DNA of 12,248 nt from a bacterium (lineage in GTDB: Bacteria > UBA10199 > 2-02-FULL-44-16 > DYJF01). The stretch spans positions 1-12,248 of the forward strand of contig JBGSNL010000081.1 of assembly GCA_041739675.1 (NCBI GenBank), given 5' to 3'. The notes beneath the pieces are model-generated. The model was not told the DNA's origin. It ran no database searches and worked only from the letters and a program-made list of their open reading frames with translations. A program made the translations under genes and the position numbers. Positions 1 through 12,248 of this stretch are shown piece after piece; position 1 is the stretch's first letter; each line of letters opens with the position of its first letter.

Positions 1-13
1 TGCGTGGATTTTT
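1..13 (-). promoter_or_regulatory. Truncated upstream (-35) part of a fifth copy of the array promoter
   Basis: The window begins tgcgtggattttt, matching gttgcgtgga(a/t)tttt at 2038 and 9850. It lies just past the gene A terminator, in the same arrangement as the other units. Confidence 0.7.
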
Positions 14-20
14 GGAGGTG

Positions 21-64
21 AAAAAAGAGACCGGATTCGAGGAAATCTCCAATCCGGTCTCTTT
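21..64 (-). terminator. Rho-independent terminator of gene A
   Basis: Stem aaagagaccggatt (24-37) pairs with aatccggtctcttt (51-64). The A-run at 21-26 gives a U-tract on the minus strand. It lies 26 nt past the stop codon. Confidence 0.88.
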
Positions 65-90
65 ATGACTTGTCTCTAGCTTAATCTCAA

Positions 91-474
91 TTACAGCCTG
101 CCAAGCGTGCTCCTGATGGGAGCCATAGCAGGAGTTACTACCGGCAAGCTGGCATGCGCTCTCGTTTGCACCATTGTCCGCGCGCCCGCGACTTGCCGCT
201 GGGCGACTCTCTGGTGCGAGGTTCCAGTTCCACCGGCACCCGCAAGCTGCCCCGCACCGCCCTCAAACGCACCGCCCGATGTTTCGCCTGTGTCTTCCAC
301 CATACCGGTGACGGTCGAATCTGTTGACGGGCCGCTGCGATAAAACGGACGGTTGGTGGAGCTGGACGCGCCGCCGACGAGACCGACTGCGTCGATCCCC
401 GCCCTGAATGCATCTATACTCGTAGGATCATCCGCCATCGTCATATGCGCCGACGCTGGATTCTCGAAGAAATG
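91..474 (-). repeat. Terminal linker + conserved tail, copy in gene A
   Basis: HFFENPASAHMTMADD...AFRAGIDAVGLVGG...RPFYRS...GETSGGAFEGGAGQLAGA...VAGARTMVQTRAHASLPVVTPAMAPIRSTLGRL. Highly similar in DNA to 8028-8402. Confidence 0.92.
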
Positions 475-1977
475 AGCGCTCGCTGGGCCCGATCCTTGCC
501 CACCGCTTCCGGAAGCGCTCGCGACTTTCAGCAAAAGGAATTTTCTCGCGTAATCTTTGAATGCGGCTACAAAATCGGCTGGCGTTCCGACGGTTTCATC
601 AATAAAACCCTCCAGCACACGGTTGAACAGTCCATACTCGTGACCGATGCCGAGCTCATCTCGAATTCGAGCACATACTAACACCAGCTGCGCATCAACT
701 ATTCTATCCATTTGAATTCCAAACTTTTCGCTCATAGTTTCAAGCAACCCATAACTTTTCGGAAAGTCTTCAGCAATCGCGTCCATTTCTCCTGGATTAA
801 TATCGTCATCGTGCCATGAGCCGTCGCTGTAAAAGAAAGGACGCTGTGCGCCCGAACCCGTGACATCCCACACCGAGCGCATATTGCGTATTGCCTCAAG
901 CGTTCCGTCTGAAGATGAATCGGACATGCTTCGGGGTTCCTTCCCAAAATCAAAATAACGAACCGGTTCCTGTCCGCCCGATCCGGCAGCGGTGTGATCG
1001 ACCGTACGGGCCAGATCTTCCGCTTTCTTCTTTTCGGCGGCAATCTGATGCTTGAGCAACTTCACAACAATGATACCGAGAACATCGATGAATGTCTCAG
1101 TCTCGCGGCTAAGGACGTCATAATGTCCGAGGGCACCTTGAAGGATATACCGCTCTCTGCGGACGCTGTCATCATCGGGCATCGCTGATCCCAAGGCCCG
1201 CGACCGTTCGGCCTGACGGTTCAGAAACGACACGCTCTCCCCCAGAACAGTTCTCAGCCGTGCGAGCCTGTTGTCTAGCTCGTCCGCGAATCGTCTCGCC
1301 TGGCGGACACGCAACTCATGCGCCTGATCCTCAGGCCGTCCGCCGCCCGACGCGCCGTCGCTGTAAAAGAACGGACGCCGTGCACCGGAACCGGTGACGT
1401 CCCACACCGAGCGCATGGTGCGAATCGCCTCAAGCGTCCTGTCCGAAGATGCATCGCCCATGCTTGGAGGCACGCGGAACGGTTCATAATATTTGACTCC
1501 CGAGAGGATGCGCATTTCGGCGCTGCCGGGCGACAATAAGACACCGATAGCGGTTCTGACGCGATGTTCGATCATCCTGATTTCATCCTTGCTTAAGGAC
1601 GATCGTCTTGCCCTATCAGCGATTGCGTTGAAGGCCGCTCTGATTTCTTCAATCCGGGTCTTTGTTTTTTGACGGGCACCGGTATTGACCGGGGACCTCA
1701 GCGACTGAAGCAGACGACTCAATTCGGTCTCCAGCTCCCTGATCTCCGAATACACATCCGCAGCATTGGCTGCGGGTGGTTCAGCAGGACCGGTGCGATA
1801 AAACGGCGCGTTAGCCCCGAAACCCATGACATCCCACACCGACGGCTGCCGGCTCATGAGCTCATATGAAGTGTCGGAAGATACAGGGCTCATGCGATAG
1901 AAACCCTCCGCTCGATTCCATGAATGGAGATTATGATAATGAAGTGACGGCAGTTCGGTTCTGGCGCCGGATAACAT
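91..1977 (-). CDS. Gene A: hypothetical modular protein (628 aa) with 4 linker motifs and the conserved C-terminal tail
   Basis: Long ORF. Start reassigned from 2025 to ATG 1977 (MLSGARTE), because this matches the N-termini of C and D, has an AAGGA SD, and ATG 2025 falls inside the promoter motif. Confidence 0.85.
   Translation of the reverse strand: MLSGARTELPSLHYHNLHSWNRAEGFYRMSPVSSDTSYELMSRQPSVWDVMGFGANAPFYRTGPAEPPAANAADVYSEIRELETELSRLLQSLRSPVNTGARQKTKTRIEEIRAAFNAIADRARRSSLSKDEIRMIEHRVRTAIGVLLSPGSAEMRILSGVKYYEPFRVPPSMGDASSDRTLEAIRTMRSVWDVTGSGARRPFFYSDGASGGGRPEDQAHELRVRQARRFADELDNRLARLRTVLGESVSFLNRQAERSRALGSAMPDDDSVRRERYILQGALGHYDVLSRETETFIDVLGIIVVKLLKHQIAAEKKKAEDLARTVDHTAAGSGGQEPVRYFDFGKEPRSMSDSSSDGTLEAIRNMRSVWDVTGSGAQRPFFYSDGSWHDDDINPGEMDAIAEDFPKSYGLLETMSEKFGIQMDRIVDAQLVLVCARIRDELGIGHEYGLFNRVLEGFIDETVGTPADFVAAFKDYARKFLLLKVASASGSGGQGSGPASAHFFENPASAHMTMADDPTSIDAFRAGIDAVGLVGGASSSTNRPFYRSGPSTDSTVTGMVEDTGETSGGAFEGGAGQLAGAGGTGTSHQRVAQRQVAGARTMVQTRAHASLPVVTPAMAPIRSTLGRL
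820..957 (-). repeat. Internal SVWDV-type linker copy in gene A
   Basis: YFDFGKEPRSMSDSSSDGTLEAIRNMRSVWDVTGSGAQRPFFYSDG (46 aa), a near-duplicate of 1354-1491. Confidence 0.9.
1354..1491 (-). repeat. Internal SVWDV-type linker copy in gene A
   Basis: YYEPFRVPPSMGDASSDRTLEAIRTMRSVWDVTGSGARRPFFYSDG (46 aa). Confidence 0.9.
1798..1938 (-). repeat. N-terminal SVWDV-type linker copy in gene A
   Basis: YHNLHSW...MSPVSSDTSYELMSRQPSVWDVMGFGANAPFY. Homologous to the gene D N-terminus. Bases 1814-1852 are identical to 2400-2438. Confidence 0.88.
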
Positions 1978-2015
1978 AATATTTCCTTTTCTTTCCCAGA
2001 CCTCCCCTAGCCGTT

Positions 2016-2042
2016 TTGTCGGCATCTTCTCAAAAAGGTTGC
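2016..2042 (-). promoter_or_regulatory. Sigma28/FliA-like promoter of gene A
   Basis: Minus strand GCAAC-ctttttgagaagat-GCCGACAA. The same motif with a 14-nt spacer precedes all four genes. Confidence 0.75.
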
Positions 2043-2068
2043 GTGGAATTTTTGGCGAAAAAGAGACG

Positions 2069-2107
2069 AAAAAAAGACCGGATTCGAGGAAAACTCCAAT
2101 CCGGTCT
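2069..2107 (-). terminator. Rho-independent terminator of gene B
   Basis: Stem agaccggatt (2075-2084) / aatccggtct (2098-2107), with an A-run at 2069-2075. Confidence 0.88.
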
Positions 2108-2143
2108 CTCGTTACTTGTTATTTGTCTCTAGCTTAATCTCAA

Positions 2144-2509
2144 TTACAGCCTGCCAAGCGTGGTCCTGATGGGAGCCATGGCCGGGGTAACCACCGGCAA
2201 GCTGGCATGTAACCTTGTTTGCACCATTATACGCGCGCCGGCAACTTGCTGCCGGGCGACTCTCTGGTGCGAGGCTCCAGTTCCACCGGCACCCGCAAGC
2301 TGCCCTGCACTGCCCTCAAACGCGCCACCGGAGGTCTCGCCTGTGTCTTCCACGATCCCGGCGACGGTCGATGGAGTGCTGCGGTAAAATGGCGCATTCG
2401 CCCCGAAACCCATGACATCCCACACCGACGGCTGCCGGTTCATCGCGACTGTGCCGTCTGAAGATGCCTCGGCCATGCTTGGAGGTACGCGGGCAGGATC
2501 ATAATACCG
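2144..2509 (-). repeat. Terminal linker (SVWDV-type) + conserved tail, copy in gene B
   Basis: RYYDPARVPPSMAEASSDGTVAMNRQPSVWDVMGFGANAPFYRSTPSTVAG...APIRTTLGRL. Confidence 0.92.
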
Positions 2510-5413
2510 CGCAGCCATAGGGCCCGGCACATTGCCGCCGCCGTTACCGCGCGGTGTCGCGGGCTCCTCGCCGTAATCGAACTCATAAAGAAGGCGCGAC
2601 TGTTCGTTCACACCGTTTTCAGCGGGCCCGCCTTCCAACGCATCTTTATTCCATTCAAAGAGCTCTTCAATCCGCGCCAGGCCCTCTTCGATATCGGGGT
2701 CCATCTCTATCATCTGGCCGCGCTGTCCCGCATAATAGTCCAGAACGGTTTTCAATATTCTCACCGCTTCGCGGCGCGACCCCACAGGATCGGCGGCACC
2801 GTTGAGACCGGCCGCCTCGAGTCTTGTCGCCACATCTCCCGGCACCCGCGCCAAAATGTGTGAGGAGCTGAAACGAACGATGAACGATATCTCCTGCGCG
2901 TTGTAGATAGTTCGGGCTACAGTCTCGGCGGATTCGGGCAGGACTTCTGTATTGGCGACGGAGGCGCCCTTCCGACCCTGCATCTCGATTAAACGCGCAG
3001 CGTCTATGCCGAAATCGGGAATATTTTCTTCGGCGGTCATCGATGACACTCCCAGGAGGCGTGAAATCGACGTCGAGGCAAAGCGCCTGATGCGCGCCGT
3101 CTCAAAGTTGATGAGCTGGCCAAGGAGCCGCGCCCTCTCGGGATACGAAGCGGCGACGGAGAGAATCATGCTCTCGGAGAAACGGACGACGGCCTCCCTC
3201 AACATATAGCCCAAGCGCGGCCAGCCGCCTCCTTTTTGAATCCACTTCAAAACAATTTGATCGATGTCGTCCGGCTCAAACGGCCAAGCCGCCGTTTCGT
3301 GCGCAACTTCCCTTGCCAACAACGGACTCTCGCCCGTGAGTTGCTCTAAAAAGACGGGATTACTGGAATATGCCTTTGCAAATATCTCAATCGCCTTTTC
3401 AATTCTTGCGCGTTGATACGCGTCGGCCGACGGCGAATCGTATCTCAAGCTAAGGTTCATCAATTGCGCGTTGAGGCCTTCTATCTCTTTCTCGTGGGAA
3501 AAGTTTCCATCATGCATCAATGCCCGCACGGTCGCCATTATGTACCCCTTCACGTTACGGAATGGAACGGAACCAAAACCCACGATTCTTCCCGCCATCT
3601 CCCAAACTGCAGGCATGACGCCCTCAATTTGCGCATCGAGAAGGTCCAAAACTCTGTCCACATCTTCCGCCTTAACGTGGTGCTGCCAAAACAGATATTT
3701 CGCCTGATTTACGATATTTGCGGCAAGATAGACCGCGAAATCCTGTTCGTCCAAAAAGCTTTCGCGGTTGTATCGCTTAACTTCGCCGGGCCACGGTTGA
3801 AAAAGAAGCTGGCGAATATTCAGTTGTAAAAACGATATGATCTCTGATCGGGCCTTGACCTCCTCAACGAAACTTTTCATGGCCCTTCTCTGGCTGTCGA
3901 CGCCGGCGCCCGCGCTCAAGGCCTCTTCCCACGCAAGCCTTCGAAGGCCCTCAATTGTGCCCTGCTCAAGGGTAGCGGTGAAATCGTCTGACGGATCACG
4001 ACTGCCATCCTCTTCTTCTCCTCGTCCTTCAGTCAGCTTGAGCTCGAAGCCCAATTCCCTCCAGATTTCGCTGTCCGCCTTCGCGAGCTTTAAGATGCCG
4101 TCTATCTCCATTCCGAATATCGGATCGGACATCACCTCTTTCTCATAGGGCTTGCCCGCGACCGCTTCCGCAACGGTTGCTTTCAGCTCCGCCATGAATT
4201 TTTTGAAAAGTTCTTTTTTGACGTCGTGGCCGAGATTTTTCATCTCAAGCAAACCGTCATCCATCTCCTGACTCACGACGCCCAGAGATGCAAACATTGC
4301 GACCCGCACAGCGACGGCAATGCTTTTCGCGTCCGCTTTTTCCTCTTTCACCGCATCGACCAGCGCCGTGCCGACATCGCTCAATGCGCGGTTGAAAAAG
4401 GCGTCCATCTGCTCAAAAATCGTAATGTACTTTATCCATTTGGCGACTTTTTTGCCGATGAGGGCCAGATCTTCCTGATCGACTCCCTTATACAATTGTC
4501 TTAGTTCCGGCGGCATCCTGAAACCGTCCGCGAGCGCGCGCGCCGCCCGCATCGATGCGTCCTCCGGCGGCGGCAAATCCGCCTCAAAGGCCTCGCTTGA
4601 AACGTTGATGTGCTCCTCTTTAAGCTGACCTTCCATCATGTCTTTCAACCTGTAGACCACAACATCGCGAAATTTCACAAGGGCGCGGGCCTTGAGAAAT
4701 TTCAGGTACTCGTCCAGAATTCCCATATGTTTTGCGACGGCAAATTCCAGAAGCGTGGCCTGATGATGATCGCCGAAGATGCTTTCGCCGTACTCATGCA
4801 CGCCGACAAGGGTGAGAAACGCGAGCCTTGTGCTCTCATCGAGGTCGACGAAGAAATCCTCGACGACGAATGCGTGGCCGTGGACCATGATGCCCGGTGA
4901 ACCCATTTCGACAAGCTCGGGAAGATCGGAACGGCTCACGAGGGCAACCTCAAATTCAAGTCCCAGCGATTCGTCTTTGAAGCGAAGCTTGCGCGCAACC
5001 GCGTAGAGCTCATCATATTTCTCGCTTGAAAGCGGGTTGCGAAGGGTCATCTGAAATGTTTGGGACAGATGGAGCGAAAGCGTCTGCGAACATATGAGAC
5101 TCATTCCGTACGCGCAGGACCCTGCGGGGACCGCGCCGCCGGCCATATGGATTGCGCCTGCGACGATCGCGGAGCCGATGTCCATCGTTTCTTGCTGAGG
5201 TTGCCACCCTGTCACGGTCGATTCACGCAACGCGCTGGGAGTGAAGAAAAAAGGACCGGTCCCGAATCTTGACCGGTATTGTTCAGCAAGTAGACGCTCA
5301 TCTTCAGGCGTCATCTCGCTCCGGGCGACTCTTTCCCTGAACTCGTCCGCCTGTTGCATGACCAGATCGTACAAGCGGTGAAGCTCACCATATAGCTCAG
5401 CTATGATGGGCAT
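2144..5413 (-). CDS. Gene B: hypothetical modular protein (1089 aa) with an HExxE motif and the conserved C-terminal tail
   Basis: 3.27-kb ORF with an AAGGGA SD before ATG 5413. C-terminal linker and tail are shared with A, C and D. Contains VHEYGESIFGDHHQA at about aa 205-219. Confidence 0.88.
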   Translation of the reverse strand: MPIIAELYGELHRLYDLVMQQADEFRERVARSEMTPEDERLLAEQYRSRFGTGPFFFTPSALRESTVTGWQPQQETMDIGSAIVAGAIHMAGGAVPAGSCAYGMSLICSQTLSLHLSQTFQMTLRNPLSSEKYDELYAVARKLRFKDESLGLEFEVALVSRSDLPELVEMGSPGIMVHGHAFVVEDFFVDLDESTRLAFLTLVGVHEYGESIFGDHHQATLLEFAVAKHMGILDEYLKFLKARALVKFRDVVVYRLKDMMEGQLKEEHINVSSEAFEADLPPPEDASMRAARALADGFRMPPELRQLYKGVDQEDLALIGKKVAKWIKYITIFEQMDAFFNRALSDVGTALVDAVKEEKADAKSIAVAVRVAMFASLGVVSQEMDDGLLEMKNLGHDVKKELFKKFMAELKATVAEAVAGKPYEKEVMSDPIFGMEIDGILKLAKADSEIWRELGFELKLTEGRGEEEDGSRDPSDDFTATLEQGTIEGLRRLAWEEALSAGAGVDSQRRAMKSFVEEVKARSEIISFLQLNIRQLLFQPWPGEVKRYNRESFLDEQDFAVYLAANIVNQAKYLFWQHHVKAEDVDRVLDLLDAQIEGVMPAVWEMAGRIVGFGSVPFRNVKGYIMATVRALMHDGNFSHEKEIEGLNAQLMNLSLRYDSPSADAYQRARIEKAIEIFAKAYSSNPVFLEQLTGESPLLAREVAHETAAWPFEPDDIDQIVLKWIQKGGGWPRLGYMLREAVVRFSESMILSVAASYPERARLLGQLINFETARIRRFASTSISRLLGVSSMTAEENIPDFGIDAARLIEMQGRKGASVANTEVLPESAETVARTIYNAQEISFIVRFSSSHILARVPGDVATRLEAAGLNGAADPVGSRREAVRILKTVLDYYAGQRGQMIEMDPDIEEGLARIEELFEWNKDALEGGPAENGVNEQSRLLYEFDYGEEPATPRGNGGGNVPGPMAARYYDPARVPPSMAEASSDGTVAMNRQPSVWDVMGFGANAPFYRSTPSTVAGIVEDTGETSGGAFEGSAGQLAGAGGTGASHQRVARQQVAGARIMVQTRLHASLPVVTPAMAPIRTTLGRL

Positions 5414-5476
5414 ATAATACTTCCCTTATGTCGGCGGAATCGCTTGCGCTGCCCCACGATTTCCCCTTTCGCCCCT

Positions 5477-5503
5477 TTATCGGCGGATATTCAGAATAGT
5501 TGC
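5477..5503 (-). promoter_or_regulatory. Sigma28/FliA-like promoter of gene B
   Basis: Minus strand GCAAC-tattctgaatatcc-GCCGATAA, with a perfect FliA -10 element. Confidence 0.75.
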
Positions 5504-5517
5504 GCGTTTTTTGGAGG

Positions 5518-5549
5518 AAAAAAAGACCGGATTCGGGGGAATCCGGCCT
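5518..5549 (-). terminator. Rho-independent terminator of gene C
   Basis: Stem agaccggattc / gaatccggcct with an A-run at 5518-5524. The single A.C mismatch becomes a G-U pair in the minus-strand RNA. Confidence 0.88.
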
Positions 5550-5576
5550 CTGATCACTTTATTATTTCGATCCAAT

Positions 5577-5948
5577 TTACGGCACAAGGACCTGGGTTCT
5601 GACAGCGGCCAGGGCCGCTACCGGTGTTCTCACCGGTGTTCTTGTTTGCGTCATGACACGGGCGCCGGCAACGTGTTGCCCCACCCTATGCTGCGAGCTT
5701 CCAGCTTGAGAAGCTCCAGCCAAATGTTCTGCACCAGCTTCAAACGCACCGCCTGATGTTTCGCCTGTCTCAACATCCGACATGAGACCCGCGACGGTCG
5801 ACGGAGTGCTGCGGTAAAACGGACGGCTGATGGAACTGAATGCGCCGCCCACAAGACCGACTGCGTCGATTCCCGCCCTAAATGCATCTAAACTCGCAGG
5901 ACCGTCCGCCATCGTCATATATTCCGAGCCGGGAAATTCATAATACCG
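5577..5948 (-). repeat. Terminal linker + divergent tail, copy in gene C
   Basis: The linker is almost identical to gene D (RYYEFPGSEYMTMADG.ASLDAFRAGIDAVGLVGGAFSSISRPFYRSTPSTVAGL). The distal tail has diverged (...VAGARVMTQTRTPVRTPVAALAAVRTQVLVP). Confidence 0.9.
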
Positions 5949-7862
5949 CGCGCTTCCTGAAGGTGATGGGCTCCCGCCGCCTCCGCCGCGAGTTCTCCTC
6001 CTTCCCGTCCTCCCGACATTATCCATTCCCTGACTCGCCAACCAATCCTCCGTCGACATATTCGCCCTTGCCCTGCCGATAGCTTCCCAATCTCTGATTC
6101 CACCCGGCCTCGTTGGCGATTTCTCCAGTTCGGCATCTCTTATTCGCCCGGGAGCTGATTCGTCTCCACCCGCTTCACGTCGTCTCCTGGTTCCTGTTCT
6201 TGCAGTGCCCGAGCTTGTCACCCGTTGCCCGGCTGCCAAGGCATCCTCCACGTAAACGGCCTCGAACTCCCTCCGACCTGTCTGAATAAAGTAAGTGCCG
6301 GGAGGCAACGTCTTAAGTTCTTCGGAAAACTTTCCAAAAATCTCTTCAAGTCTCTCATCGGTGTAAGGCAGCGGAACGGCGCGGGCACTGCTGCGGCTGA
6401 TCGGTGCAAAATATCTCGTGGCCAGAGGAATAAATTTATCGAGCAGCGCGGTCATCCTGTCGGCAACAGGTTGGGATTCAGCCACTGGCCCCGCAAAATA
6501 GTTTCCAAGGACATAGATGAGATCGGCTGTATGACGTCCAATAAGAGTGCCGTAAAGACTGCTTTGGAGATACCTATTGGCCAGCCTTAAAATATCGCTT
6601 TTCGCGACAGTCGGAATACCGCTTGTGATCCTCAAAACGGTATCGATGACTTTTCTTTTAAGATCGTCGATGGGATTATTTCCCAGAGCGATAAAAGTCT
6701 CCATGAATTCGGCGACATCATTAGGATGCATAAATGAATATGAAGCCACGATGAACGCGCCCGAGGCAAGTTTCGTTTCGCCTCTATTTAAAAGGACAAG
6801 CAGCGTCTCAAAGAAAGCGTCTTCCGTGGTATTTTCCGGATCGGTGGTCATCTCAGGCGATCTGGGATCGAAACCCATATCCAAGCGGTGAAGCAACGAA
6901 TCGAAGCTGACAGGAAGTTCCGTGAGCCGAGGGCTAAGCACACTTAAAGCCACGTTGAGCAGACCCATCGCTAAGGGGCGGTTGGTTTTGGCTATCTCAC
7001 CGATCCTCGTCAGGCTGTTAGCGTCCTTCTCGGTGAATTGGCCCAGCTCCAGTTTCTTAATGAAACTCTCGAACCGGCTGTCCGTGGAAATCAGACGCCT
7101 GATTGCCTCCAGCGCCCTGCCATTAGCTGTATAAGCAGGAGAATTTCCATAAGGACCTCTTCTAAGATAATACGGCTCAAGTCCTCCCACGCCGTCGGCG
7201 CCTCCAAACCAGCGAGTTGCAGTGCGTCCCAGTGTTTCACGCGTAGACGCGAGCGAGTCGGATGAATTGGGATCAACCGCCCCGACACCCTGCCACGAGG
7301 ATTCGTAATAACGCGCGGTCCCTGAACGTCGGATACGTCTACCCGACTTCGGTCTCTCAGGAAGGAAATCGAGAAGACCGTTTTTCGAAGCAACGCCGTA
7401 GATTTCATCGATTACTCGAGAGATTGCGGGCGAACGATGTCCTCTCTGGACTATGCCGCCCAAGGCCTTGGCGACCATTTTCAAAATCATCCCTTTCGGG
7501 GTTCCGGCAAATGAAGGATGAAGTTCTTCTGCCGCAAGGGTCACTACATGATGCGCAATGCCGGCGACTGCGTCATCGCTCAGACGCTCGCTCATCATGG
7601 ACAAATTGTTGGCCACTACGCTGAGATGCTGATATAAGACGCTGCTGAAGATTTGAGGCTGGTGAACGACTTCGGTAAAATTGTACCTGCTTACTTCAAC
7701 TTTGCCGTCTAGCCAGTCTATAACCCAGGCCTGCCCTCTCGCAACATCCCCCGAAATTATTACCCTCAACTCCCTGCTCGACTGTTCGTATTCCGAGATC
7801 GGGACTACACGAGTTGTTCCCGCCGGTCTCGATGGACCTTCCGTTCTTGCTCCTGATAACAT
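5577..7862 (-). CDS. Gene C: hypothetical modular protein (761 aa) with a divergent version of the conserved tail
   Basis: Starts MLSGARTEGPS with a GGGGA SD. Has an internal SGTARYYE linker and a C-terminal SGSARYYEFPGSEYMTMADG... linker plus tail. Confidence 0.88.
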   Translation of the reverse strand: MLSGARTEGPSRPAGTTRVVPISEYEQSSRELRVIISGDVARGQAWVIDWLDGKVEVSRYNFTEVVHQPQIFSSVLYQHLSVVANNLSMMSERLSDDAVAGIAHHVVTLAAEELHPSFAGTPKGMILKMVAKALGGIVQRGHRSPAISRVIDEIYGVASKNGLLDFLPERPKSGRRIRRSGTARYYESSWQGVGAVDPNSSDSLASTRETLGRTATRWFGGADGVGGLEPYYLRRGPYGNSPAYTANGRALEAIRRLISTDSRFESFIKKLELGQFTEKDANSLTRIGEIAKTNRPLAMGLLNVALSVLSPRLTELPVSFDSLLHRLDMGFDPRSPEMTTDPENTTEDAFFETLLVLLNRGETKLASGAFIVASYSFMHPNDVAEFMETFIALGNNPIDDLKRKVIDTVLRITSGIPTVAKSDILRLANRYLQSSLYGTLIGRHTADLIYVLGNYFAGPVAESQPVADRMTALLDKFIPLATRYFAPISRSSARAVPLPYTDERLEEIFGKFSEELKTLPPGTYFIQTGRREFEAVYVEDALAAGQRVTSSGTARTGTRRRREAGGDESAPGRIRDAELEKSPTRPGGIRDWEAIGRARANMSTEDWLASQGMDNVGRTGRRRTRGGGGGSPSPSGSARYYEFPGSEYMTMADGPASLDAFRAGIDAVGLVGGAFSSISRPFYRSTPSTVAGLMSDVETGETSGGAFEAGAEHLAGASQAGSSQHRVGQHVAGARVMTQTRTPVRTPVAALAAVRTQVLVP
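7167..7313 (-). repeat. Degenerate internal linker copy in gene C
   Basis: (SGTA)RYYESSWQGVGAVDPNSSDSLASTRETL...FGGADGVGGLEPYY keeps RYYE, SSD and the terminal P-aromatic-aromatic at similar spacing. Confidence 0.65.
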
Positions 7863-7904
7863 ATACTATTCCCCTTTCTTACCCCAGTTGTCCCTTTAGC
7901 CTCT

Positions 7905-7931
7905 TTGTCGGCACCCTGTCAAAAAGGTTGC
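7905..7931 (-). promoter_or_regulatory. Sigma28/FliA-like promoter of gene C
   Basis: Minus strand GCAAC-ctttttgacagggt-GCCGACAA, 43 nt before the ATG (same distance as in gene D). Confidence 0.75.
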
Positions 7932-7957
7932 GCGGTTTTTTTGGGGAAAAAGAGACG

Positions 7958-8001
7958 AAAAAAAGAGACCGGATTCGAGGAAATCTCCAATCCGGTCTCT
8001 T
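7958..8001 (-). terminator. Rho-independent terminator of gene D
   Basis: aaaaaaagagaccggattcgaggaaatctccaatccggtctctt, essentially identical to 21-64. Confidence 0.88.
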
Positions 8002-8027
8002 GTAACTTGTCTCTAGCTTAATCTCAA

Positions 8028-8402
8028 TTACAGCCTGCCAATCGTGGTTCTGATGGGGGCCATGGCCGGGGTTACTACCGGCAAGCTGGCATGTGCTCTC
8101 GTTTGCACCATTGTCCGCGCGCCCGCGACTTGCCGTTGGGCGACTCTCTGATGCGAGGCTCCAGTTCTAGCAGCGCCCGCTAGCTGCCCCGCACCGCCCT
8201 CAAACGCACCGCCCGATGTCTCACCTGTTTCCTCCACGAGACCCGCAACAGTCGACGGAGTGCTGCGGTAAAATGGACGACTGATGGAACTGAACGCGCC
8301 GCCGACGAGACCGACTGCGTCGATCCCCGCCCTGAACGCATCCAAACTCGCGGAACCGTCCGCCATTGTCATATATTCCGAGCCGGGGAATTCGTAGTAT
8401 CG
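8028..8402 (-). repeat. Terminal linker + conserved tail, copy in gene D
   Basis: RYYEFPGSEYMTMADGSASLDAFRAGIDAVGLVGG...APIRTTIGRL. Confidence 0.92.
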
Positions 8403-9785
8403 TGCACCTCCCGAAGATGTCACGCTGCCGCCGCCTGATTGGCTGCTTTGCAGTTGCACGATCTTTTCGTCGACAACTCTCCTTATTCGTCTCAGATAAT
8501 CACCCGTCAAACCATCGTATTCAGCCTTCAAAGCTACGCTCTGAAGTCCTTTTATCGCGCGTGTCACAGCGCTACCTGCATCGTGCCAACTCCCCGCCAG
8601 CGCCCCTTCCACGGCCTCACCACGATGGAATGACTCTGGGTGCCTCATTCTTTCCACATACGCCAATATCCCATCAATCTGCACCGATAGATCGGCTGAA
8701 TCGGCGACCTGCCTAACTTGGAATTGGAGCCGCGTATCATAGCCCCCTCTTTTGAGCACATCAAAGAGTTTGGACTTCGTCTCACTTACAACCCTGGATG
8801 CAGTGGACAGCGCTGAACGCCACTCCAACAGTGTGCCTTCATCTTCAGTGACGTAGTATAGATTTCTTATCGCTTCCGCTTCAATAAGCCGGCGCATCTC
8901 AAGAAGTCTGCCCAACCTAGAAACCTCCGATGACAGCTCTTCAAGCATGTTTCCTTCACCCACAGGAACTGTAGGTGCGGGCCCTGATACCCCCTCATCC
9001 GACAAGAGCTCGGTGACGTCAGGATCTGCGCGGGCGGCGTCTTGGAGGCCTTCGATTGCTTCGGCAGCCTCCGCCTTTATTCGTTCCAAATAATCACCGG
9101 TCAGACCTAAGTATTCAGCTCTTAAAACGACACCCCGAAGTCCGCTTATCGTGCGGGTCACAGCGCTACCTGCATCGCCCCACGTCCTCTCCATTACCCC
9201 TTGCGCAACCTCTCCGTGCTCGTACAATTCGGGGTGCCTCATCCTTTGCACATACGCCAATATTATTTCAATTTCCACGTCCAGGATGGAAAAATCAATG
9301 ATCTGCCTGACCTGGGTTTTGAGTAGCTCTACCTCGTCAGGCGCCAACCCGGAAACTTCTGCCATCATGGCCATTTCCCAAAGTTTGGACTCCATCTCTC
9401 TTCGCCTCTCATATCCAGCGTCCGCTTCGGAAGTCCACTCCGCTATTTTGCGTTTGTCATCCGGAATGGCGCCGAAAAAAAGATTTATCTCCGCTTCCGC
9501 CGCGGCAGTCTTTTGCTCTCTAAGAAGCTCGCCCAATCTTGAAATCTCCTCTGACAGCAGGTCAAAACTTGACCCGCTCTCAGCGCCGCTGGAGCCGCCG
9601 CCAAAATATGGAAAGTTGATACCTGCGCCGGTCATAATATCCCACACCGACGGCTTCCGGCTAATCAATTCATATGTGCCGTCTGGAGACACCGGGCTCA
9701 TTTCAGGTAAGCCTTGCGACACTCTCCATGCATTCAAGTCATAATAATGTAGTGATGGACCTTCGACTTTTGCTCCCGATAACAT
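8028..9785 (-). CDS. Gene D: hypothetical modular protein (585 aa) with a duplicated helical domain and the conserved tail
   Basis: Starts MLSGAKVEGPS with a GGGGA SD. N-terminal linker, two ~170-aa repeats, then C-terminal linker plus tail. Confidence 0.88.
   Translation of the reverse strand: MLSGAKVEGPSLHYYDLNAWRVSQGLPEMSPVSPDGTYELISRKPSVWDIMTGAGINFPYFGGGSSGAESGSSFDLLSEEISRLGELLREQKTAAAEAEINLFFGAIPDDKRKIAEWTSEADAGYERRREMESKLWEMAMMAEVSGLAPDEVELLKTQVRQIIDFSILDVEIEIILAYVQRMRHPELYEHGEVAQGVMERTWGDAGSAVTRTISGLRGVVLRAEYLGLTGDYLERIKAEAAEAIEGLQDAARADPDVTELLSDEGVSGPAPTVPVGEGNMLEELSSEVSRLGRLLEMRRLIEAEAIRNLYYVTEDEGTLLEWRSALSTASRVVSETKSKLFDVLKRGGYDTRLQFQVRQVADSADLSVQIDGILAYVERMRHPESFHRGEAVEGALAGSWHDAGSAVTRAIKGLQSVALKAEYDGLTGDYLRRIRRVVDEKIVQLQSSQSGGGSVTSSGGARYYEFPGSEYMTMADGSASLDAFRAGIDAVGLVGGAFSSISRPFYRSTPSTVAGLVEETGETSGGAFEGGAGQLAGAARTGASHQRVAQRQVAGARTMVQTRAHASLPVVTPAMAPIRTTIGRL
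8448..9563 (-). repeat. Two-copy internal domain duplication in gene D (about 9042-9563 and 8448-8946)
   Basis: ILAYVQRMRHPE...DAGSAVTRTISGL...AEYLGLTGDYLERI versus ILAYVERMRHPE...DAGSAVTRAIKGL...AEYDGLTGDYLRRI. The 21-mer gtcacagcgctacctgcatcg occurs at 8563 and 9157 (594-bp offset). Confidence 0.9.
9603..9749 (-). repeat. N-terminal SVWD-type linker copy in gene D
   Basis: HYYDLNAW...MSPVSPDGTYELISRKPSVWDIMTGAGINFPYF. Confidence 0.85.
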
Positions 9786-9827
9786 ACAACTTCCCCTTTC
9801 TTCCCCCTGATACGCCTCTTAGCTGCT

Positions 9828-9854
9828 TTGTCGGCTGGTTGTCAAAGAAGTTGC
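9828..9854 (-). promoter_or_regulatory. Sigma28/FliA-like promoter of gene D
   Basis: Minus strand GCAAC-ttctttgacaacca-GCCGACAA. Confidence 0.75.
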
Positions 9855-9873
9855 GTGGATTTTTTTCAGGTAA

Positions 9874-10200
9874 GTGTCACAGGAGGCTGTGCGTGCGGCG
9901 CATTGCCGGGAGACGGCGGGGGCCCCATCGCGGCAAGCGGGCGGTGGAAACCTCGGCAGAATTGCGGTGTCAAAACGCGATTTGAAGATCAGGGGACACT
10001 TCTCGCTTCAGAAGAGGGGACGTTTCTCATTTTCACATGAGCTGCACGCGAACAGGAGAAACGTCCCCTCCTTGAGAAGTGTCCCCCATCAAATCGCAGT
10101 TTTGACTCGCAATTTGAGCGAGGAGGGTTTGCCGCCCGCGAGACCGCGAAAGGGGAGCCGCCGGAGGCAGAAGCGCCGCACGCACAGCCTCCCGTGACAC
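9874..10200. repeat. 327-bp nested imperfect inverted repeat (MITE/REPIN-like element or rod-shaped RNA)
   Basis: Terminal arms 9874-9901 and 10173-10200 match at 27/28. Pairing continues inward with internal loops. Perfect inner IRs at 9992-10004/10074-10086 and 10014-10028/10056-10070. Confidence 0.85.
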
Positions 10201-10206
10201 CTTCTA

Positions 10207-10235
10207 TTGATTTTTCCTGCCGAACCGCGTACTTT
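10207..10235 (+). promoter_or_regulatory. Putative sigma70 promoter of the kinase gene
   Basis: TTGATT (10207-10212), 17-nt spacer, TACTTT (10230-10235). The ATG follows 7 nt later with no SD. Confidence 0.55.
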
Positions 10236-10242
10236 GTCCGCC

Positions 10243-12248
10243 ATGTCACCTGACGAGACAAGCGGATCCACAAAGCAACCCAAGGCAAATGTCGGCCAAT
10301 ACTATCTCATGGAGAAGATCGCCCAAGGGGGAATGGCCGAAATTTACAAGGGACTCTCCTACGATCTTCACGGCCTCAAGAAGACCGTCGTCATAAAAAA
10401 GATTCTGCCCCACATCTCGGCATCCAAAGAATTCATTGATTCGCTTATAGATGAAGCAAAGATCGCGGTTTCACTTTCGCACGGCAACATCGCGCAGATC
10501 TACGATCTGGGGAAAGTTGGCGAGGACTATTTCATGGTGATGGAATATGTCGAAGGAAAATCGCTCTCGCTCATCCACAAGAAGTGCATGGCGCAGGGAC
10601 GCCTCATCCCCATCGCCTATCTTTGCCACTTCATGAGCGAGGCCCTTGCGGGGCTGGACTACATGCACAGAAGGACGGACGAGAAAGGCCGCCCGCTCCA
10701 CATCATCCACCGCGATATCAGCCCGCAAAACCTCGTCGTCACATATTCGGGAACGGTCAAGATCATCGATTTCGGGATCGCAAAATCGGCGATCAAAATA
10801 GGAACAACCGATTCCGGCATCTTAAAAGGAAAATTTTCGTACATGTCGCCCGAACAGGCGCGCGGCGATTCGATAGATCACAGAAGCGATATTTTTTCGC
10901 TGGGAATTATCTTTCACGAGATGCTCACGGGCAAGCGCCTCTTCAAGACCGATGACACGCGCGAAACTTTGCGAAACGTGAGACGCGCGAAAGTCGATCC
11001 GCCCTCCACCTTCCGCGGCGATCTGGCCGACGAGCTGGACCGCATCGTCATGAAAGCGCTCTCAAAGGACCGCCGCCACCGCTACGCATTCGCGTCCGAC
11101 ATGCACGACGATCTCATAAAATTTATCTCCACTGCATATCCCGAATTCCAATCCTCAGAGGCGGGGGATTTTGTGCGCGAGATATTTGAAGACGAGATAT
11201 CAAAGGCCTCTGAAGAGGAGGAGATGAAAACTCCTCAGATGATAATCGATCACACCTCGTCCGCGCTCACGGATGAAAGCCAGATGGAAGTCACCGGCCA
11301 GGCCAAGGCCCCTCTCGATATGAAGGATTTCCTGCTTGAGGAGGAGGAAGAGCCGCGCGAGGAAACCGAAGGCGAGACACCTGCGAGACACATACCCGAG
11401 ATCGCGGTGATTGAGGACGAATCCGAATTCATGAAGGTGAAGCATAAGGCCCCTTCGCGCCTTCTCAAAAAATATCTGGGCGCGATCTTGGGCGGGATAA
11501 GCATCGTTTTTCTTCTCATCTCCATCTTCTCGTCTTTCAAGGTGTGGAAGAGCGAGCCCGCAGGGCCCGGCGCGGCGAAGGCGGAGATACTGGTGACCAC
11601 AAATCCGCCCGATGCATCCATAATTTTTGACGACAAACACATCGGCACAGGCTCGCCCATCGCCATCCACGATATAAAAATCGATGAGGAGCACACGATC
11701 ACCGCGCAGCGCGAGGGATACGTCCCGCAAACTCAAAAGGTGAAGCTCAGAGAGGACGAATTCAAGAGCCTTGAGATCACGCTCACGAAGGCCGTGAGCA
11801 CAAAGTGCACGGTCATCGTGTCGTCCACGCCTCCCGGCGCCACGGTTTTTGTCGATGACGTTGAAACTCCGCACCGCACACCCGCGACCATAAAGGATAT
11901 CGAGACGGGCAAGCGCCATACGCTGGGCCTGTTCATGAGCGGATACCAGTTCTGGAGCAAGAATTTTGAAGCACACGAGGGTGAGACGCAGAATTTCGAC
12001 GTGGGGCTCGTGAAAAATTTCGGCTCGCTTTCCATCGATTCGTCGCCCGTCGGAGCGCTCGTGATGTTAAACGATCTTCCGTCGGGACAAACACCGTTTA
12101 TTCTGGACAACATCGAGCCGCAGAAGGTGTACCGCGTAGAGGTCTGGCTTGAAGGATACGAGCCCTATCTTCAGGAAGTACAAATAGATGCCGGTAAAAA
12201 ACAGGAACTGCACGTGACGCTAAAAAAATTGCCGATGATACCCGTTCC
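10243..12248 (+). CDS. Hanks-type Ser/Thr protein kinase with TM helix and at least 3 PEGA-like repeats (3' end truncated by the window)
   Basis: Translated by hand and open to the window end. Kinase motifs: IAQGGMAEIY, VVIKK, HGNIAQIYD, HRDISPQN, DFG, GKFSYMSPEQ, RSDIFSLG. Then an acidic linker, TM YLGAILGGISIVFLLISIFSSF (about 11473-11538), and repeats ILVTTNPPDASI..EGY, VIVSSTPPGATVFVD..SGY, LSIDSSPVGALVMLN..EGY. Confidence 0.95.
   Translation, partial: MSPDETSGSTKQPKANVGQYYLMEKIAQGGMAEIYKGLSYDLHGLKKTVVIKKILPHISASKEFIDSLIDEAKIAVSLSHGNIAQIYDLGKVGEDYFMVMEYVEGKSLSLIHKKCMAQGRLIPIAYLCHFMSEALAGLDYMHRRTDEKGRPLHIIHRDISPQNLVVTYSGTVKIIDFGIAKSAIKIGTTDSGILKGKFSYMSPEQARGDSIDHRSDIFSLGIIFHEMLTGKRLFKTDDTRETLRNVRRAKVDPPSTFRGDLADELDRIVMKALSKDRRHRYAFASDMHDDLIKFISTAYPEFQSSEAGDFVREIFEDEISKASEEEEMKTPQMIIDHTSSALTDESQMEVTGQAKAPLDMKDFLLEEEEEPREETEGETPARHIPEIAVIEDESEFMKVKHKAPSRLLKKYLGAILGGISIVFLLISIFSSFKVWKSEPAGPGAAKAEILVTTNPPDASIIFDDKHIGTGSPIAIHDIKIDEEHTITAQREGYVPQTQKVKLREDEFKSLEITLTKAVSTKCTVIVSSTPPGATVFVDDVETPHRTPATIKDIETGKRHTLGLFMSGYQFWSKNFEAHEGETQNFDVGLVKNFGSLSIDSSPVGALVMLNDLPSGQTPFILDNIEPQKVYRVEVWLEGYEPYLQEVQIDAGKKQELHVTLKKLPMIPV

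Follow-up and report, generated by a model that had tools for sequence, protein, structure and literature searches.

We analysed a 12,248-nt stretch of bacterial DNA (the window), which is the entire contig JBGSNL010000081.1 (here C36) of assembly GCA_041739675.1, a genome of 1.91 Mb in 88 contigs (completeness 94.6%, contamination 1.9%; GTDB lineage UBA10199; 2-02-FULL-44-16; DYJF01). The window holds four tandem gene cassettes, and their proteins belong to a co-regulated, recombining and fast-turning-over family that carries one selected, disordered and strictly C-terminal tag, hereafter the tail. By analogy with flagellar export, we tentatively read the tail-tagged proteins as sigma-28-class late substrates of a flagellum-derived type III secretion system (T3SS) that lacks a needle, a reading to which we give somewhat less than an even chance. 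Working labels are G000 for this genome, G001 for a same-genus relative, G002, G004 and G005 for other relatives, and L001 and L006 for contigs C37 and C30.

A cassette family with one C-terminal tail

The part of the array inside the window consists of four open reading frames (ORFs), A to D, which follow one another in the same orientation, all on the minus strand (Table 1). Each has its own sigma-28-type promoter about 40-65 nt upstream of the start codon and its own strong terminator, which in four of four cases is a hairpin with a U-run (-20 to -28 kcal/mol; z-scores -4.3 to -5.7; 0 of 200 shuffles as stable). A linker of ~50 amino acids (aa) and a tail of ~75 aa are common to all four proteins. 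Alignment of five gene-to-gene junctions revealed one conserved block of roughly 0.5 kb. It spans the DNA that codes for linker and tail, the stop codon, the 3' untranslated region (UTR), the terminator and the promoter, and ends with the 5' UTR and 10-20 codons at the start of the following gene; the intervening bodies vary. Two types of 3' end occur, in which tail variant and terminator variant go as pairs. Promoters in the window are spaced 3461, 2428 and 1923 bp apart, matching periods given in an earlier note on this DNA, and the further period of 2039 bp given there fits a promoter cut off at base 1. The cassette array reported in that note is confirmed, with four co-oriented units that have linker, tail, 3' UTR, terminator and promoter in common and, by the ORF list, no small immunity ORFs in the window.

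The longest-ORF ATG of A, at 2025, falls within the promoter of that same gene, so translation probably starts at 1977 instead; A then opens with MLSGA..., as C and D do. The pattern M-x-[S/G]-G-[G/A] was also seen more widely at gene starts, with 16 plausible cases in the genome, 11 of them behind a sigma-28-type promoter; it may be a signal, a translation feature or a mark of processing. They occur in the window at 9771-9785, 7848-7862 and 1963-1977, and elsewhere at C8:11504, C24:2666, C53:9716, C59:34850, C32:14618 and on C6 (three).

The linker module opens with an aromatic YY pair, has S-V-W-D-V at its core and closes with P-F-Y. A local hidden Markov model (HMM) found 15 copies, confined to six proteins of this one array and placed at the N-terminus, between repeated units or before the tail. 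A, D and two genes on contig C37 are partly made of related units of 150-270 aa, each of which starts with a linker module. Residues 187-572 of A align to residues 27-435 of the second tail gene on C37 (45% identity, in shifted register), and residues 815-1089 of B align to residues 624-913 of the same protein. These mosaic matches indicate that bodies are both duplicated and swapped and, together with the junction block, back the recombination and module shuffling proposed in the earlier note. Its description of the middle regions as largely unrelated holds for the bodies of B and C, which are unique, but not for those of A and D, which share repeated units. Additionally, gene D contains a direct duplication (8483-8729 versus 9077-9323, 72% DNA identity) corresponding to two helical modules of ~200 aa each.

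Few bodies in the family are recognizable: HD_4 in the third tail gene of C37, HATPase_c in the 2014-aa member and an SNF2 helicase in the 1644-aa member. The last two are adjoining giants on the minus strand of C30, the GHKL-type ATPase at 8347-14391 and the helicase at 14532-19466, for which PADLOC returned generic SNF2 matches only.

Counting tails by a profile search of the genome, as the earlier note had suggested, gave 26 places, each at the extreme C-terminus of its frame (profile built from 15 tails; 1.9-Mb genome). These comprise 25 ORFs (117-2014 aa; 18,522 aa in total) and one fragment at a contig start. Eight members lie on C36 and C37, at least four on C15, the two giants on C30, and six on C54 and C14, provided that the C14 fragment completes an ORF cut at the end of C54; C24, C59, C60, C61, C82 and C86 carry single members. 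Members outside the array have only the tail in common, at 24-36% identity to that of D.

In the tail pattern, a V-T-G-L...T-G-E-T-S-G-G box is followed by a stretch of variable sequence, then by a basic segment and finally by a Pro-rich end, and in many members a Pro/Ala-rich spacer precedes it. Net charge over the first 35 residues is negative in 20 of 25 tails (range -6 to +1), and the last 40 carry +5 to +11 in all 25. No stretch reaches the hydrophobicity expected of a membrane helix in any of the 25 (maximum 19-aa Kyte-Doolittle mean 1.08), and 24 of the 25 family N-termini are not signal-like, the C24 member being borderline, in keeping with the absence of signal peptides claimed earlier. 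AlphaFold2, given a 25-row alignment, predicted a single helix over the basic segment at low confidence (pLDDT 55.5, pTM 0.14); as modelled, the tail is a disordered tag and not a domain.

Among the seven closest tail copies, synonymous divergence (dS) ranges from 0.34 to 1.15, with a ratio of nonsynonymous to synonymous divergence (dN/dS) of 0.12-0.50, in 21 of 21 pairs. Thus, the tail peptide is kept by purifying selection and its copies are not assembly duplicates, which contradicts the assembly artefact that the earlier note had raised as a possible refutation.

We found no homologue outside this genome. Searches of the four window proteins against Pfam, NCBIfam and PADLOC yielded either no match or sub-threshold ones (E 0.03-0.06, below curated cut-offs), and neither tail nor linker matched a Pfam or NCBIfam family; the earlier note had likewise not recognised the family, and a Pfam match to either part was among the findings it would have counted against its own view. 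PDB sequences yielded nothing credible with protein B or with the tail profile, the latter giving nothing at E below 0.3, and the best ESM Atlas score with B, 0.76, was below the level of more than a lead. A word-indexed search with residues 440-585 of D returned five matches, all from this genome, and a profile search of 1.84 billion representative proteins returned 14, of which 13 were from this genome; the other (P0014), a Gram-positive adhesin repeat, was rejected as a false repeat match. The tail profile found nothing in 60 relatives, including a same-genus genome at 83% completeness, and protein A and the 2014-aa member were each found in 0 of 5 relatives. Sigma-28-type sites in four stretches of three relatives were not accompanied by tail-tagged arrays.

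Promoter class and secretion machinery

One promoter class stands before every cassette, which lends sequence support to the co-regulation claimed in the earlier note. As a correction to the first reading, the sites are of sigma-28 (FliA) type and not sigma-70. The pattern GCAACYWY-N11-GCCGAYAA has four minus-strand matches in the window against 0.00 expected (200 shuffles). Its upstream element, GCAACTTT, is 11 nt away, at the position of the enterobacterial TAAAGTTT. The -10 element is the published sigma-28 consensus GCCGATAA (PMC12784957). The strict pattern GCAACTTT-N11-GCCGATAA has 19 sites in the genome; of 21 genomes of the order, 20 contain it, and a reversed-pattern control gave 0-1 matches. 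Relaxing the pattern gave 34 genomic sites, nine of which lie upstream of tail genes, with the others preceding unknown ORFs (about ten) and two exported proteins. Sites of this type also precede an SMC-like gene (C17) and a RecN-like gene (C31), both identified from their N-termini only. A scan for sigma-70 promoters gave 12 matches, none in the four gaps, and sigma-54 promoters, considered by eye only, were dropped.

A FliA-like sigma gene lies inside the T3SS cluster, and the sigma factor is present in 21 of 21 genomes of the order. The best candidate in this genome is broken in two, with its parts at the contig ends of C5 and C87. The intact orthologue from the same genus, which is flanked by sctJ and a FliG-like gene in the same orientation, has FliA/WhiG as its best model (130.8 bits, below the cut-off of 189.6). 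From these sequence features, we infer that the FliA-like sigma probably reads the cassette promoters.

The T3SS genes found encode SctV, SctU, SctJ, a tetratricopeptide repeat (TPR) protein, a FliG-like protein, FliH/SctL, SctN, SctO, FliP, FliQ and FliR (SctRST), a FliK-like switch protein and a FliM-like protein; their loci are C5 16273-20291, C87 371-9482, C31 11465-13624 and C37 10367-11434. Flagellin (PF00669) and rod proteins were not found in the genome. A T3SS secretin and needle were not found either, both secretins sitting with type II secretion system (T2SS) and PilMNO genes. Of 21 genomes examined in the order, 20 have SctV but only one has flagellin and rod/hook proteins, and that one also has a second FlhA. 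Thus, the order has a widespread, non-flagellar but very flagellum-like T3SS, possibly a new intermediate form linking flagellum and injectisome.

Of the secretion systems whose co-occurrence the earlier note had put forward as a check, the T3SS is represented by the genes just described. The genome also has T2SS and type IV pilus systems; VirB4, the marker of type IV secretion (T4SS), had 0 matches in the genome, and TssC, that of type VI secretion (T6SS), was not found. One stand-alone ATP-binding cassette (ABC) exporter lies on C33 with no adaptor gene beside it, and the best match to the HlyD-type adaptor model (TIGR01843) reached 36 bits against a cut-off of 208, TolC not having been searched. 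Encapsulin cargo was rejected as a role because PF04454 had 0 matches in the genome. A sortase/exosortase-type signal or a type IX secretion system (T9SS) C-terminal domain was likewise rejected, given that none of the 25 tails has a hydrophobic stretch, that 24 of 25 N-termini are not signal-like, that the four window proteins have no NCBIfam match and that the tail is predicted to be disordered.

Layout and genomic setting of the array

Table 1. Features of the window; linker-module coordinates were calculated from residue ranges.
Feature	Positions	Strand	Details
Cut-off promoter of fifth cassette	1-16	-	Minus strand ends ...TCCACGCA; letters at contig end ...CCAAAAATCCACGCA; array resumes at C37 base 1
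Intrinsic terminator of gene A	12-70	-	-28.1 kcal/mol, z -5.72, then U-run
Gene A	91-2025	-	644 aa as longest ORF; probable start 1977 gives 628 aa (MLSGA); three repeated units, then linker and tail
C-terminal tail of A	94-327	-	Tail profile E 9e-31
Linker module just before tail of A	334-498	-	~50 aa, YY...SVWDV...PFY; local HMM
Other linker copies in A	826-975, 1360-1500, 1792-1947	-	Local HMM
Sigma-28-type promoter of A	2016-2042	-	Pattern match
Terminator of gene B	2059-2117	-	-26.9 kcal/mol, z -4.61
Gene B	2144-5413	-	1089 aa: unique body of ~960 aa, one linker module, tail
C-terminal tail of B	2147-2380	-	Tail profile E 5.9e-31
Linker copy in B	2378-2530	-	Local HMM
Sigma-28-type promoter of B	5477-5503	-	Pattern match
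Terminator of gene C	5508-5566	-	Second 3'-end type; -20 kcal/mol, z -4.28
Gene C	5577-7862	-	761 aa: unique body of ~630 aa, linker, second-type tail
C-terminal tail of C	5580-5810	-	Tail profile E 1e-28
Linker copy in C	5808-5969	-	Local HMM
Sigma-28-type promoter of C	7905-7931	-	Pattern match
Terminator of gene D	7950-8008	-	-27.3 kcal/mol, z -5.15
Gene D	8028-9785	-	585 aa: N-terminal module, internally duplicated helical body, linker, tail
C-terminal tail of D	8031-8264	-	Tail profile E 1.5e-30
Linker copies in D	8262-8423, 9600-9755	-	Local HMM
Sigma-28-type promoter of D	9828-9854	-	First cassette of the array; pattern match
Insertion boundary	9855-10206		Nested palindromic stretch; holds a repetitive extragenic palindromic (REP)-like element, about 10014-10068
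Ser/Thr protein kinase with PEGA domains	10207-12246	+	Pfam; cut by contig end; orthologue abuts sctU in relatives

The array continues past base 1 of the window, as the earlier note had supposed, with further paralogues on C37. That contig begins inside the 5' UTR/N-terminus of one such paralogue and carries four consecutive tail genes followed by sctU/flhB (PF01312, E 4e-117). A DUF6290 antitoxin-like gene (C37 2219-2443) and a ParE toxin gene (C37 2443-2715) lie between the fifth and sixth cassettes, and the array amounts to at least eight tail genes and this toxin-antitoxin pair. The orthologues of the PEGA kinase and sctU are directly adjacent and divergent in four of four relatives (G001, G002, G004 and G005). 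We therefore conclude that base 1 of C36 joins base 1 of C37, and that kinase and sctU have been separated in this species by the insertion of the array. The predicted order is kinase, D, C, B, A, the four C37 genes and sctU.

The REP-like element at the insertion boundary is ~55 nt long and has 19 genomic pattern matches, one pair of which immediately precedes the C30 gene for the 1644-aa tail protein. The surrounding palindromic stretch of 350 bp has terminal inverted repeats and resembles a small mobile element. Two tail-gene arrays each adjoin a Ser/Thr kinase gene, here and on C14 (5841-6973), and both kinases have the same N-terminal kinase motif, which may be chance.

A search of sequencing runs identified one DNA run (X1), from a hot-spring metagenome, that contains the window; no RNA run was among those listed. 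Run X1 is probably the source sample and thus gives no independent confirmation. Its Logan contigs cover the full window but are broken at repeats, so the order of the cassettes depends on the original assembly. Read depth in X1 is 8-10 over the unique parts and greater over the shared parts, as real repeats would give.

Possible roles of the tail

Genes of the sigma-28 class in flagellar systems encode late export substrates, and chaperones hold the C-terminal regions of these substrates. Our reading of the tail-tagged proteins as T3SS cargo follows from this analogy. We infer that the tail would be a targeting or export address and the T3SS the machine that reads it, which would narrow the single export or processing machine proposed in the earlier note to one candidate. 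The T3SS-linked sigma would switch the cassettes on, as sigma-28 does for late flagellar substrates, and the products would expose the tail, with its acidic TGETSGG box, variable spacer, basic helix and Pro-rich end, on a flexible linker. A receptor at the export gate, or a chaperone, would then bind the exposed tail. Recombination between junction blocks, from tail through terminator and promoter to the next N-terminus, would swap and multiply the bodies. In its fullest form, which we regard as doubtful, the proposal holds that the tail is a new C-terminal export signal for late, sigma-28-driven cargo of an order-wide T3SS with FliA/FliK/FlhB switching, that the 26 proteins are its first candidate repertoire, and that the SNF2, GHKL and HD bodies act in prey or host.

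The cassettes resemble the late (class 3) flagellar substrates, namely flagellin, hook-associated proteins and FlgM, in their sigma-28-type promoter with a GCCGATAA -10 element (PMC12784957), in the link of the sigma gene to a T3SS export apparatus in which FlhB and a FliK-like switch protein are retained, and in disordered termini. They differ in that the family proteins have no Pfam match to the flagellin (Flagellin_N/Flagellin_C) or FlgM families, that the genome has no flagellin, rod proteins or FliS, and that the family here numbers 26, with bodies that are unrelated and up to 2014 aa long. The needle-less T3SS* of Myxococcus xanthus and the ancestral 'Myxo' non-flagellar T3SS (Abby and Rocha 2012) have an inner-membrane export gate and a sorting platform but lack secretin, needle and translocon; they occur in a 'deltaproteobacterial' lineage, and their effectors are described as not identified (PMC12075869, PMC12428579, PMC3459982). 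The system described here shares the inner-membrane gate and platform without secretin or needle, judged from its genes, but unlike T3SS* keeps FliG-, FliM-, FliK- and FliA-like genes.

Several observations weigh against T3SS export. Known T3SS signals are N-terminal, and we know of no C-terminal T3SS address of this kind, nor, from full-text literature searches (which are no proof), of a comparable tail family in print. Nearly all relatives have the T3SS (20 of 21) and the sigma factor (21 of 21), whereas the tail is present in 0 of 60. As secretin and needle were not found, no outer-membrane route is visible; additionally, a FliS-type chaperone was not found in the genome, and no partner gene is common to the family loci. 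The occurrence of the promoter class before SMC- and RecN-like genes points to a general regulon and not a secretion-specific one, and the promoter-like site before the T3SS-cluster ORF C5:16725 has a spacer of 13 nt by our own count, not 11. Because the array is a recent insertion, its nearness to sctU may be accidental. Finally, the SNF2, GHKL and HD bodies could act intracellularly just as well.

The tail could instead be the address for another route, such as a type I secretion system (T1SS)-like ABC exporter, vesicles, hand-over to a pilus or T2SS, or an undescribed machine, with sigma-28-type control being a mere shared timing signal; we consider this unlikely. Signals that are C-terminal, uncleaved and unstructured typically belong to T1SS and T4SS substrates and not to T3SS ones, and T4SS signals are likewise basic at their end, as is the tail in 25 of 25 members. 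The ABC exporter on C33, the T2SS and the type IV pilus would be available in this genome, and the needle-less T3SS of M. xanthus is itself thought to cooperate with a Tad pilus (PMC12075869 and PMC12428579). Against such a route stand the absence of VirB4 from the genome, the lack of a HlyD-type adaptor over cut-off or in the neighbourhood of the exporter, the absence of RTX or other Pfam repeats from the four window proteins, and again the missing common partner gene. Among T4SS effectors, the X-Tfe proteins of Xanthomonas (XVIPCD) and the Beps of Bartonella (BID and a basic tail) combine variable N-terminal bodies with a conserved C-terminal address and occur as many paralogues. The tail family is like them in its variable bodies, single shared C-terminal part, basic end and many paralogues, but the window proteins match no Pfam family at E up to 0.1, and a predicted disordered tail of ~75 aa is not a folded domain.

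An intracellular role for the tail is also improbable in our view, whether as a degron that clears stage-specific proteins, a basic anchor to nucleic acid or another polyanion, or a FlgM-like feedback peptide that binds the sigma factor. FlgM is disordered too and binds sigma-28 through its C-terminal half, to which the disordered tail with its one basic helix and strongly positive last 40 residues could be compared; however, neither Pfam nor NCBIfam matched the four whole window proteins at E up to 0.1, FlgM (PF04316) included, and the PDB-sequence profile search was equally empty. SNF2 helicase, GHKL ATPase and HD hydrolase bodies are normally cytoplasmic, and the regulon includes the SMC- and RecN-like genes, but a 26-fold, fast-turning-over, species-specific and body-swapping family would be more typical of secreted or surface repertoires, and the long Pro/Ala-rich spacers before many tails suggest an accessible tag. 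A structure of the sigma-28-FlgM complex is given in PMC12784957.

That the family has no common function, consisting of selfish or decaying repeats or mis-assembled paralogues whose shared ends reflect DNA-level homogenisation, is very improbable: its confinement to one metagenome-assembled genome, the single run with contigs that break at repeats, the ParE pair inside the array and the REP-like palindromes flanking it would all fit, but the ORFs are all intact (343-2014 aa), the dS and dN/dS values of the tails indicate selection at the protein level rather than conversion alone, the tail is all that distant members on other contigs have in common, and read depth fits real repeats.

The array also has the tandem paralogues, conserved ends, swapped middles and recombination at conserved junctions of polymorphic toxin and cassette arrays. 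In classical polymorphic toxins, the arrangement is the reverse of the conserved C-terminal, presumed trafficking part and variable N-terminal part seen here. Unlike such arrays, the window has no small immunity ORFs, and none of its cassettes is silent, since every unit carries both a promoter and a terminator.

T3SSs that are flagellum-like and needle-less are regarded as the evolutionary bridge between flagella and injectisomes, and Myxococcus needs them for prey lysis, with substrates described as not identified (PMC3459982, PMC12075869). This genome offers a clear-cut candidate cargo set, recognisable by one tail and one promoter class, and with it a ready hypothesis on the timing and choice of cargo. 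Should the tail turn out to be a degron or anti-sigma peptide instead, the whole family would nonetheless carry a new kind of regulatory tag. Additionally, the array shows how a repertoire can be built quickly, with a junction block of ~0.5 kb serving as a portable adaptor for recombination and expression between arbitrary bodies.

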